Below are positions 23,603-26,133 of a stretch of DNA of 32,000 nucleotides, piece after piece. The DNA lies in NCBI GenBank assembly GCA_049296095.1, contig JBAQRV010000001.1, positions 240,001-272,000 on the forward strand, written 5' to 3'. Position 1 is the stretch's first letter; every line of letters starts with the position of its first letter. The DNA comes from Candidatus Saccharimonadota bacterium. Its GTDB lineage: Bacteria; Patescibacteriota; Saccharimonadia; Saccharimonadales; Saccharimonadaceae. Below the pieces are notes generated by a model, which saw only the letters and a program-made list of their open reading frames with translations, had not been told where the DNA came from and made no database searches. A program made the translations under genes and the position numbers.

Positions 23603-24991
23603 CTACTTCTTCTTCTCGGTTTTAATCTTTTCAGCAAGGGTGCCGTTGACCATATAGAACCAGTCTTCGGGTTTATCATCGTACTTACCAGCGATGATAT
23701 CGGCAAAGTCACGAATCGTGTCTTCCAATTTGACGTAGGTACCTGGGTTACCGGTAAACTTCTCGGCAACGTGGAATGGTTGAGAGAGGTAGCGTTGGAT
23801 ACGACGAGCGCGGGCAACGGTTTGTTTCTGATCGTCGGACAACTCTTCCATACCAAGGATCGCGATGATATCTTGGAGCTCTTTGTACTGCTGAAGCACA
23901 CGTTGGACTTCACGAGCCACGCGGTAGTGCTCGGCACCAACGATTTCAGGGTCGAGACTGGTCGAGCTTGAGGCCAGGACGTCTACGGCTGGGTAGATAC
24001 CAATTTCGGTCAGCGCACGGTTCATCACAATCGTCGCATCGAGGTGGGCAAAGGTTGCCGCAGGCGCCGGGTCAGTCAAGTCATCCGCTGGAACGAAGAC
24101 TGCTTGCACAGAGGTAATTGAACCAGTTTTGGTTGAAGTAATACGCTCTTGCAGACCACCCATTTCCTCTTGGAGGTTTGGCTGGTACCCTACAGCTGAC
24201 GGAAGTCGGCCGAGAAGGGCAGACACCTCAGCACCAGCTTGGGTAAACCGGAAGATGTTATCGATGAAGAGGAGGACGTCTTTTCCAGAGTCACGGAAGG
24301 CTTCGGCCATCGCCAGACCAGAGAGGGCGACACGCAGACGTGCTCCTGGTGGTTCGTTCATCTGACCAAAGACGAGAGAGGTCTTGCCAAGCACACCAGC
24401 TTCTTCCATTTCGTAGTAGAGGTCGTTTCCTTCACGCGTACGCTCGCCGACACCGGCAAAGACAGAGTTTCCAGAGTGGAATTTCGCGATATTGTTAATC
24501 AGCTCGGTAATGAGGACTGTTTTACCGACACCCGCACCAGCGAAGAGGCCGGCCTTACCACCCTTAATAAGCGGAGCGATGAGGTCGACGACCTTAATAC
24601 CAGTTTCAAGCACTTCAGATTTGTTTGATTGTTCGTCGAGTGGGGGAGCTTCGCGGTGAATAGGGGCGAGGGCGGCATTTTTTGGCTGCTCGAGGCCATC
24701 AATTGCCTCACCAACCACGTTGAACATACGACCCTGCGTCACGTCACCGACAGGCACGCTAATCGGCGCGCCGGTTGCAGTCACTTCCTGGCCGCGCTTC
24801 AGTCCGTCAGTACTCGACAAAGCAATCGCTCGAACTGTTTTCTCATCGAGGTGCTGCGCAACCTCCAAAGTCACGGTACATTTTGGTTGTTTGATCAAAA
24901 GTGCATCATAAATAGCTGGGATATCGCCATCAAACTCAACGTCCACGACGACACCAACGATTTGTATAATTTTTCCTGTAGTTTTAGTCAT
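23603..24991 (-). CDS. atpD: F1 ATP synthase subunit beta
   Basis: '[11 protein letters not shown]' P-loop and '[10 protein letters not shown]' plus downstream conserved blocks. GGAGG (24997-25001 on plus) lies 5 nt upstream of the ATG at 24991. Confidence 0.97.
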
Positions 24992-25271
24992 CTCGTCCTC
25001 CATATGTCTCAATAAATTCTGTCAATTCTTGTATCATTTCCTTCGCTTTCGTTACTGCTTCTCGCCGTTGTTCTTCAGTGACTTCAACGCTGAGATGTCC
25101 TAGTCGTTCTTGCAGAGCGACATAATGCTCTTCTGCAGTTGGTTCACGACCTAACTCGTCTCGCAGTCTAACCCTGATCGCATCGCTCTCTTCTAGGATG
25201 CGCATTGGACCAGGCGCATCAGCATCGCCCCAGTCAAGATAAGGGACTTTGAGGCCATCTATGTTAGTCAT
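24984..25271 (-). CDS. Unassigned acidic 95-aa ORF inserted between atpG and atpD
   Basis: It fills the whole atpG-atpD spacer. GGAGG (25278-25282 on plus) lies 6 nt upstream of the ATG at 25271. Its start overlaps the atpG stop and its stop overlaps the atpD start (ATGACTAA at both junctions). Confidence 0.7.
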
Positions 25272-26133
25272 TAAGTGCCTCCACGCCACCGCTTATTTCT
25301 GCTAATTCTTGTGTAATCGCACCTTGTCGCGCCTTATTCATCGCCAGCGTCAGATCATCAACGAGGTCAGATGCATTATCGCTCGCGTTCTTCATCGCCA
25401 ACATGCGCATACTGTGTTCGCTTGCACGGGAATCGAGCAATGCTTGATAAATCTGTGCCCCAACTAATCGATAAGCGACGCCGTCGAGGACTTCCTCGGT
25501 GCTTGGTTCATAGGTTACATCAGTCGCCACACCCGGTTCAACCGTTGACTCAAAGCCGGCCGGCAAGACACGGATCATTTTTGATTCCTGCACAATACTA
25601 CTGACAAAGTCGGTGTAGATCACATCAACGGCGTCGACTTCGCCACTCTCAAACAAGGTCCGCGCACTATCTAAAATAGCCCGCAGCTCACTGCCGTCGG
25701 GACGATCGGGCAACTCTTCATAGGCACCCAGGACTTGAGTATCCTTGATGCGCGCCACGAATTGCGCCGCTTTTCGTCCAACCGTAATAGTCGTATTTTT
25801 AATCTTGGCAGCATCGTCTTTTTTGAGTTCTTCGGCATAAACACGAACGATATTACTGTTATAGGCACCAGCCAAGCCCTTGTCTGACGCAATCACGATG
25901 AGTAGACGAGTCTTCACTGGACGATTCACAAACAATGGGTGATTCTTGACCGAAGTGTGGGTCGAGAGGGCAGTCAAAAGCTGACGAGCAGCGAGTGTGT
26001 AGGGTGCAGATGCCTTGGTCGCATCCTGCGCTCGGCGCATTTTACTGGCCGCAACCAATTGCATCGCCTTCGTAATCTGGCGAGTACTCTTCACCGAACG
26101 AATGCGTGACTTAAGTAGTTGCGTTGATGCCAT
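25264..26133 (-). CDS. atpG: F1 ATP synthase subunit gamma
   Basis: 'IRSVKSTRQITKAMQLVAASKMRRAQ' at the N-terminus and 'LTLAMNKARQGAITQELAEI' at the C-terminus. Confidence 0.95.
   Translation of the reverse strand: MASTQLLKSRIRSVKSTRQITKAMQLVAASKMRRAQDATKASAPYTLAARQLLTALSTHTSVKNHPLFVNRPVKTRLLIVIASDKGLAGAYNSNIVRVYAEELKKDDAAKIKNTTITVGRKAAQFVARIKDTQVLGAYEELPDRPDGSELRAILDSARTLFESGEVDAVDVIYTDFVSSIVQESKMIRVLPAGFESTVEPGVATDVTYEPSTEEVLDGVAYRLVGAQIYQALLDSRASEHSMRMLAMKNASDNASDLVDDLTLAMNKARQGAITQELAEISGGVEALND

Follow-up and report, generated by a model that had tools for sequence, protein, structure and literature searches.

A 32,000-nt stretch of a Candidatus Saccharimonadota genome (contig JBAQRV010000001.1, positions 240,001 to 272,000; the whole stretch is called the window below) carries, on its minus strand, an ATP synthase (atp) operon in which an extra open reading frame (ORF) of 95 amino acids (aa), named here orfX, lies between atpG and atpD, the genes of the F1 subunits gamma and beta. 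We found that orfX is a genuine protein-coding gene and that it is neither a core nor an obligatory part of F1. The reading that we favour, with moderate confidence, is that orfX is a lineage-restricted and dispensable small protein gene that occupies, at the gamma/beta junction, a slot of Saccharibacteria atp operons whose cargo turns over fast, and that its function need not concern F1 at all.

orfX is a conserved coding sequence fused to both of its neighbours

A first-pass annotation of this DNA had described an ORF of 95 aa that exactly fills the atpG-atpD spacer, begins with GGAGG-N6-ATG 5 nt before the atpG stop codon and contains, within its own last codons, the GGAGG and the ATG of atpD. 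Reading of the minus strand confirmed this anatomy, and the flanking genes were identified as gamma (PF00231) and beta (PF02874 and PF00006), as had been proposed. Both the Shine-Dalgarno sequence and the start codon of orfX are carried by the last codons of atpG, while the last codons of orfX, GGA GGA CGA GAT GAC TAA, hold the Shine-Dalgarno GGAGG and the ATG (24991-24989) of atpD, a start that is supported by alignment with 80 loci. The range originally given for the ORF, 24984-25289, does correspond to the maximal frame, which has 101 aa and opens at an upstream GTG, but conservation places the start at the ATG at 25271, where all homologues begin. The Shine-Dalgarno site of orfX reads GTGGAGGC in four of the five alleles that carry the gene and GTTGAGGC in the remaining one (L086); the same site is GTCGAGGC or GTAGAAGC in orfX-negative alleles. 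Neither promoter-like nor terminator-like sites nor any Rfam match were found within 24984-25289.

Homologues of orfX proved to be rare. A word-seeded search returned the window's own protein only, annotated as hypothetical in Candidatus Microsaccharimonas. Exhaustive phmmer comparison with 1.84 billion representatives gave P0002 (63% identity) and P0003 (46%), and a subsequent profile search added P0007 (58%) and P0008 (51%). The family comprises only five protein clusters (P0001, P0002, P0007, P0008 and P0003) of 93-101 aa, which are 44-63% identical to the window protein and 39-63% identical across all pairs; no further homologues were found in a scan of Joint Genome Institute metagenomes. 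Other candidates were discarded: the exhaustive comparison had also listed P0004-P0006, long repeat proteins that are artefacts of composition or repeats, and P0009 and the IMG/VR match L089 share only the motif ELGREPT with orfX.

In every one of the five clusters the gene lies between atpG and atpD and overlaps each of them by 8 nt (in the window and in the loci L081, L085, L086 and L088), and the frame is thus kept in four species-level homologues besides the window. Their alignment contains 26 invariant positions, grouped in motifs. Differences at the first, second and third codon positions amount to 0.37, 0.26 and 0.62, respectively, the second position being the most conserved, and the ratio of nonsynonymous to synonymous substitution rates (dN/dS) of the closest pair is ~0.18, an approximate figure because synonymous sites are near saturation. 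In two comparisons the dN of orfX was ~3.6 times that of gamma. When the 277-nt insert was shuffled, it was open in the required frame in 0.36% of trials. The conserved frame, the decreasing order of change from third to first to second positions and a dN/dS below 1 are those of a coding gene under selection, and the Shine-Dalgarno spacing and the start/stop overlaps with both neighbours, conserved in the homologues, are those of a translationally coupled gene. Since orfX is under purifying selection, its protein does something useful. The GC content at third codon positions (GC3) of orfX in the window is 0.35 compared to 0.51-0.53 in the flanking atp genes, and it is below that of the flanks in four of the five genomes (window, L081, L086 and L088, though not L085), which may reflect either a foreign origin or weaker codon selection.

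This anatomy suggests how orfX would be expressed. The gene would have no promoter of its own and would be transcribed within the atp mRNA; ribosomes finishing atpG would terminate in ATGACTAA and reinitiate on orfX, aided by the GGAGG that the atpG codons provide, and ribosomes finishing orfX would likewise reinitiate on atpD. As for the first-pass claim that the coupling implies translation in stoichiometry with gamma and beta, its first half stands, as translation of orfX from the atp mRNA seems almost unavoidable and the coupling probably indicates a level of about that of gamma. The stoichiometric partnership with F1, in contrast, is weakened by the data from relatives.

orfX is absent from genomes with nearly identical F1 genes

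Presence and absence of orfX were analysed in 80 species-level Saccharibacteria relatives fetched via atpG (61-92% identity) out of more than 480 atpG matches. The closest relatives without orfX, L001-L003, encode gamma subunits that are 90-92% identical; their atpG ends in LSE/LSD and is followed by a 13-nt spacer, TAAGGAGAnnnnn, and then by the ATG of atpD. The statement that this spacer normally measures a few tens of nt was borne out within the lineage, since the spacers of the closest GTDB relatives are 13-17 nt long. The empty junction type of L001-L003 is shared with the more distant L014, L016, L012 and L004, and it is thus a common and probably the ancestral state. Whereas a core subunit is expected wherever the enzyme is present, orfX was absent from L001-L003 and from most of the 80 species, in which the atpA-atpG-atpD-atpC block is intact. 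Of the checks that the first-pass annotation had proposed, conservation of the frame and dN/dS came out in favour of a gene, with orfX homologues in this same slot; other related genomes have an empty junction or unrelated small ORFs there.

A concatenated neighbour-joining tree that included missing genes gave artefactual groupings and was replaced by analyses of complete columns. With gamma plus beta, the window, L081, L086, L001, L002 and L003 formed a clade with 99.6% support, and the three orfX-bearing members of this clade (window, L081 and L086) were monophyletic in 15 of 500 replicates. With 1210 aa of alpha, gamma, beta and epsilon, the orfX-negative L003 was the sister of the orfX-positive L086 (99.7% bootstrap). 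Outside the six-genome clade, orfX is carried by L085, whose gamma is 81% identical to that of the window, and by L088. No column of alpha, gamma, beta and epsilon separated the genomes with orfX from those without it.

The junction of L003 is the canonical empty allele, without a deletion scar, and this, together with the low GC3 of orfX, fits allelic exchange by recombination through the conserved flanks. Windowed nucleotide identity around this junction was suggestive at the 3′ end of atpG but too noisy to call a recombination tract. Whether inherited vertically or exchanged, orfX is, on these comparisons, dispensable over short evolutionary distances. A search for orfX remnants in the 31-96 nt spacers of relatives gave nothing significant (best p ~0.04, uncorrected, in 11 tests).

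Two loci of this sample call for comment. In L010 (UBA4215), a gap of orfX-like size turned out to be a run of N followed by a junction of the orfX-negative type, and because the run covers the atpG-atpD junction this locus is uninformative. Runs of N, corresponding to scaffold gaps or masking, lie at 2493-2669 and 4816-5120 of L010 and occur also in L009, L028, L053 and L085; the one at the L010 junction could mislead an automated survey of spacer lengths. L088 is an orfX-bearing metagenome contig of 1549 nt (ENA contig k127_24686217). The tail of its atpG is nearest to the Microsaccharimonas-type clade (93-97% identity), its atpD, 96-98% identical to that of L031/L032 over residues 121-365, groups with a distant clade, and its GC3 is 0.33 in orfX versus 0.59 in atpD; the contig represents either recombination or a chimeric assembly.

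The gamma/beta junction receives many unrelated ORFs

Inserts longer than 100 nt were present between atpG and atpD in 43 of 88 loci, that is, in 34 of 80 species without orfX (about 40%). Such inserts were also found at atpA-atpG in 19 of 84 loci (ORFs of 32-237 aa, mostly overlapping atpG by 8 nt at their end), at atpD-atpC in 9 of 77 (117-1042 nt) and at atpH-atpA in 3 of 71. The atpG-atpD cargo falls into ~25 sequence groups without detectable mutual similarity. Eight of these loci (L034, L040, L045, L046, L052, L058, L062 and L066) carry a gene of the 23S_rRNA_IVP family (PF05635, E 3.5e-34), matched over its full length in all except L052, whose ORF is shorter (105 aa); the same family is found at atpA-atpG in L036 and at atpD-atpC in L039 and L050. 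PF05635 proteins are bAvd-like four-helix bundles. Their presence in three atp junctions of different species suggests that the family has repeatedly landed in highly expressed conserved loci. Four further atpG-atpD loci form one BLAST cluster, one member of which lies just above the threshold of PF05014 (nucleoside-2-deoxyribosyltransferase) while another has no Pfam match at E 0.01. The remaining cargo consists of orphans of 45-270 aa.

Most orphan inserts begin on the atpG stop codon and end 8 nt into atpD, unlike the PF05635 inserts, which keep their own spacers of 19-60 nt. Because the Shine-Dalgarno sequence and the ATG of atpD are read in frame, these orphans end in G-E/G-x-x-D/E. The same atpD constraint underlies the G-G/E-x-D/E found at the C-terminus both of orfX homologues and of slot ORFs unrelated to them. 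Since the same double coupling is seen in most of the unrelated ORFs at both atpG-atpD and atpA-atpG, it is a property of the slot and not of orfX itself. We infer that an insert at the junction would be tolerated only if ribosomes are relayed to atpD. Such a filter would explain why nearly every insert is an ORF fused to both neighbours, and the architecture would then reflect the need to keep beta expressed rather than a stoichiometric partnership.

That the cargo changes quickly is indicated by sister genomes (L031/L032/L036 and L043/L079), in which it cannot be aligned even by tblastx, whereas orfX orthologues keep ~60% identity at comparable atp divergence; this argues for real turnover, more than divergence. 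Within a database of 124 sequences, remote homology between orfX and other slot ORFs was limited to L043 (E 0.003) and L041 (E 0.007), both at the level of motifs and unconvincing.

The orfX protein and its comparison with known systems

The product of orfX is acidic (isoelectric point, pI, 4.55; net charge about -11), lacks a transmembrane segment and gives a helical AlphaFold2 model, in agreement with its initial description. The five homologues have a pI of 4.4-4.9, a net charge of -8 to -12 and no hydrophobic segment. In the model, built from the five-sequence alignment (predicted local distance difference test, pLDDT, 72.9; predicted template-modelling score, pTM, 0.41), residues 1-20 are disordered and are followed by helices at 22-40, 46-60 and 66-90. 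The conserved residues P10, L12, W14, P20 and P22 (PxLxW...PGP) lie at the N-terminus, and LGREPT and EL-EF are invariant as well, the latter with Y90 towards the C-terminus.

Comparison of orfX with Pfam, NCBIfam, PHROGs and PADLOC gave nothing above threshold (best PHROGs E 0.17; HNH_repeat, PF18780, 13.3 bits versus a threshold of 26), and a profile search of the PDB gave nothing significant. Foldseek comparison of the model with the PDB returned nothing below E 0.9, which is weak evidence because a model of this pLDDT and pTM was derived from only five sequences. As regards an additional ATP synthase subunit, there was no Pfam or NCBIfam match and no sequence or fold match in the PDB to an ATP synthase chain; as regards a membrane protein of the AtpI/AtpZ type (PF09527 or PF03899), orfX has no hydrophobic segment and no match. 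Homology to a mobile gene, which the first-pass annotation had named as a refuting result, did not emerge from the PHROGs, PADLOC, plasmid and viral searches: plasmids and PADLOC contained no orfX homologue, and IMG/VR contained a single match limited to the motif. No likeness to mobile, homing or defence genes was found, and all true homologues of orfX share one context. Within the window, we found neither a paralogue of orfX nor signs of an origin from a piece of an atp gene.

Several small proteins regulate F1-ATPases. The C-terminal domain of epsilon, alpha-proteobacterial zeta, mitochondrial IF1 and cyanobacterial AtpTheta are small, soluble, largely helical, taxonomically restricted and non-essential regulators, and several of them act through a segment that is disordered until bound to F1. 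The orfX protein is similar in that its conserved N-terminus is modelled as disordered, with helices after it, but it has no sequence or fold similarity to any of these and is strongly acidic. The genes of zeta, IF1 and AtpTheta are not known to lie at the gamma/beta junction. In common with atpI/atpZ, orfX is a non-subunit ORF co-transcribed with ATP synthase genes; these, however, stand at the 5′ end of the operon and encode membrane proteins, and orfX has no transmembrane segment. With PF05635 genes orfX shares the atpG-atpD slot, although the two are not homologous and differ in that orfX is fused to both neighbours. Taken together, the protein is closest in layout to the small F1 regulators, and the gene is closest in its genomic behaviour to cargo of the PF05635 type that interrupts conserved loci. 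In Rhodopseudomonas blastica, too, an unidentified reading frame reportedly stands at the gamma/beta junction, the position that orfX has here, though our literature search did not confirm it.

Two families with partial resemblance were considered and rejected. Helix 1 and the LGREPT(A/P)EE turn of orfX resemble the start of region 3.0 of sigma-70 region 3 (PF04539), both being three-helix units, and sigma factors in the PDB match orfX at E 0.02-0.8. However, PF04539 scored 22.2 and 17.6 bits in two of the five members, below its threshold of 25.3 and over profile positions 2-25 of 78 only, and Foldseek gave a template-modelling (TM) score of ~0.3 with E >=0.9. ELGREPT also occurs in an unrelated giant phage protein, and a helix-turn of the ELGREPTxEE type is found in PF18780 HNH_repeat as well. 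The weakness of the signals and the presence of the motif in the phage protein point to a shared local motif and not to family membership. DUF1722 (PF08349, a YbgA-like C-terminal helical domain) matched ~55 residues in four of the five members at E 0.007-0.047, with 14.4-17.1 bits versus a threshold of 22.5.

Alternative explanations

The first-pass annotation had suggested that orfX encodes an F1-associated subunit, an assembly factor or an inhibitor. This proposal is not supported by the comparison with relatives, as the same coupling is seen in unrelated ORFs, orfX is missing beside F1 enzymes that are 90-92% identical and no residue of alpha, gamma, beta or epsilon co-varies with it. In a milder form, orfX would be an optional, lineage-specific partner of F1, either a regulator or inhibitor or a gamma/beta assembly chaperone, made in step with gamma and beta and acting through the conserved disordered N-terminal motif, with a role analogous to that of the epsilon C-terminal domain, zeta, IF1 or AtpTheta. 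We regard this as possible but less likely, and none of our results speaks for it in particular. It would account for the fact that all five clusters are confined to the gamma/beta junction, for the purifying selection, for a conserved PxLxW...PGP in a region modelled as disordered ahead of a helical bundle and for an acidic, soluble product, and known F1 inhibitors are likewise taxonomically restricted and dispensable. Besides the near-identical F1 of sister genomes that lack orfX and the missing co-variation, the lack of sequence or fold similarity to any ATP synthase protein argues against such a partner, as does the fact that the slot also holds identically coupled proteins without a plausible link to ATP synthase; given these unrelated, equally coupled occupants, position and coupling carry little functional information at this site. 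A broader version, which we consider doubtful, is that the junction is a rapidly evolving regulator slot and that orfX and the other coupled ORFs would be, by analogy with zeta or IF1, lineage-specific F1 modulators made in step with gamma and beta, whose short disordered motifs would enter the enzyme. If so, these Saccharibacteria, which are obligate epibionts, would adjust the hydrolysis or synthesis of ATP by means of small proteins that can replace one another.

It is also conceivable, although improbable in our judgement, that the frame stays open only so that ribosomes can cross the insert between atpG and atpD and that the peptide is functionless. Nearly all atpA-atpG and atpG-atpD inserts are indeed ORFs fused to both neighbours whatever their sequence, many of them are singletons of 32-80 aa, and the C-terminal residues are dictated by the Shine-Dalgarno sequence and ATG of atpD, but a mere relay leaves unexplained why the 26 invariant positions of orfX cluster in motifs across 39-63% identity, why second codon positions are the most conserved and dN/dS is low, and why the length is held at 93-101 aa. 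We assign a similarly low probability to a selfish or horizontally exchanged cassette, which would have spread by homologous recombination through the atpG and atpD flanks and would exploit a strongly expressed operon, possibly in relation to conflict. The incongruence between orfX presence and the flanking-gene tree (rare monophyly of the carriers and the L003-L086 pairing), the canonical orfX-negative allele of L003 in place of a deletion scar, the low GC3 in four of five genomes, including the contig L088, the joining in that contig of a clade-A-like atpG tail to a clade-B atpD and the appearance of 23S_rRNA_IVP genes in three different atp junctions would all be consistent with it. Yet there is no mobility gene, repeat or target duplication beyond the functional motif formed by the Shine-Dalgarno sequence and ATG, phage, plasmid and defence libraries hold no homologues, the family is found in the gamma/beta slot only, its divergence scales with that of atp, and L088, a 1.5-kb metagenome contig, may be an assembly chimera. 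Finally, a chance open frame in a long spacer would agree with an annotation as hypothetical only and with the lack of a family match, but it is barely credible given that five diverged clusters preserve frame, length, start and stop and differ from one another in the manner of coding sequences, and that so few shuffled inserts stay open.

Some observations weigh against our preferred reading of orfX as a dispensable occupant of a fast-turnover slot. The identities among orfX proteins roughly follow those of the atp genes, a pattern that would favour mostly vertical descent with losses, and divergence that tracks atp would fit a long vertical residence of the orfX family rather than frequent turnover. 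The dN/dS of orfX is approximate, synonymous sites being saturated. A gene that sits within an operon and is coupled to the genes on either side usually has a functional link to them, and a family known from the gamma/beta slot alone also fits a dedicated role in ATP synthase. The conserved N-terminus, predicted to be disordered, and the helical bundle recall F1 inhibitors that become folded when they bind, although the likeness is one of layout only. Lastly, the proposed ribosome relay filter is drawn from the anatomy of the junctions.

Significance of a proposed coupled cargo slot

orfX defines a small, previously unnamed protein family of five clusters, annotated as hypothetical only, that is almost certainly translated, judging from its coupling, and probably at roughly ATP synthase levels, in some Microsaccharimonas-like Saccharibacteria. 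The genomes of these organisms measure ~1 Mb, and genes retained in them are usually expected to be under selection. The case illustrates that tight two-sided translational coupling in a conserved operon can come from the slot and not from what the inserted gene does, and guilt by association fails for orfX. The wider pattern may be more interesting, as ~40% of the sampled species have unrelated and mostly double-coupled ORFs at the gamma/beta junction, which has the look of a natural site, within an essential operon, where genes turn over or are even born. A literature search gave no description of a gene between atpG and atpD, nothing relevant on Saccharibacteria atp operons and no account of this pattern; atp operons with an additional accessory ORF are of a known type, while a hypervariable slot that preserves coupling is apparently undescribed.

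Organization of the locus

Coordinates of the atp operon and of the orfX junctions are collected in Table 1.

Table 1. Features of the atp operon and of the junctions of orfX (window coordinates)
Feature	Position	Strand	Basis or remark
atp operon (whole transcription unit)	23174..30072	minus	ORF list and Pfam
atpZ/I-like	30072-29671	minus	PF09527, 32.5 bits; directly upstream of atpB
atpB	29671-28880	minus	
atpE	28834-28622	minus	
atpF	28612-28070	minus	
atpH	28070-27672	minus	
atpA	27662-26136	minus	
atpG (F1 gamma, 289 aa)	26133-25264, stop TAA 25266-25264	minus	PF00231, E 3.5e-87
Shine-Dalgarno of orfX, GGAGG	25278..25282	minus	made of atpG codons GTG GAG GCA; 6 nt from ATG
atpG/orfX overlap, 8 nt, ATGACTAA (putative termination-reinitiation junction)	25264..25271	minus	
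orfX, 95-aa acidic orphan protein	24984..25271 (ATG 25271-25269, TAA 24986-24984)	minus	
Shine-Dalgarno of atpD, GGAGG	24997..25001	minus	Gly-Gly in the orfX frame; 5 nt before atpD ATG
orfX/atpD overlap, 8 nt, ATGACTAA	24984..24991	minus	
atpD (F1 beta, 462 aa from ATG 24991)	23603..24991	minus	PF02874, PF00006, PF22919
atpC	23599-23174	minus	

In the window, the atpA-atpG (26133-26136) and atpD-atpC (23599-23603) junctions are short, 5 and 6 nt, respectively. As the PF09527 gene at 29671-30072 shows, the operon already has the usual accessory membrane gene. Downstream of atpC, and before a terminator-like hairpin at 22802-22783 (minus strand), lies an orphan ORF of 93 aa (22806-23087, minus strand) with which the atp transcript may end; its sole Pfam signal, at E 0.04, is to the N-terminal domain of an Xre/MbcA/ParS-like antitoxin. 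The convergent gene dus comes immediately after atpC in L081, and genes for 322 and 217 aa come after it in L086. Since the genes after atpC differ between the window, L081 and L086, the 3′ end of the operon is variable too.

Just upstream of the atp operon, a protein of 652 aa or longer is encoded at 29990-31948 on the minus strand; it contains long Gly runs, matches Gly_rich_2 (PF21722, E 1.4e-16) and overlaps the maximal frame of the atpZ/I-like ORF. L086 has the same neighbour, there with 1282 aa. Convergent to the operon, on the plus strand, are a UvrD-type helicase fused to a PD-(D/E)XK nuclease (18117-21395) and the tRNA-dihydrouridine synthase gene dus (21827-22780). Both the helicase-nuclease and the dus neighbours are also found in L081 and L086, indicating that synteny is conserved around the variable slot.

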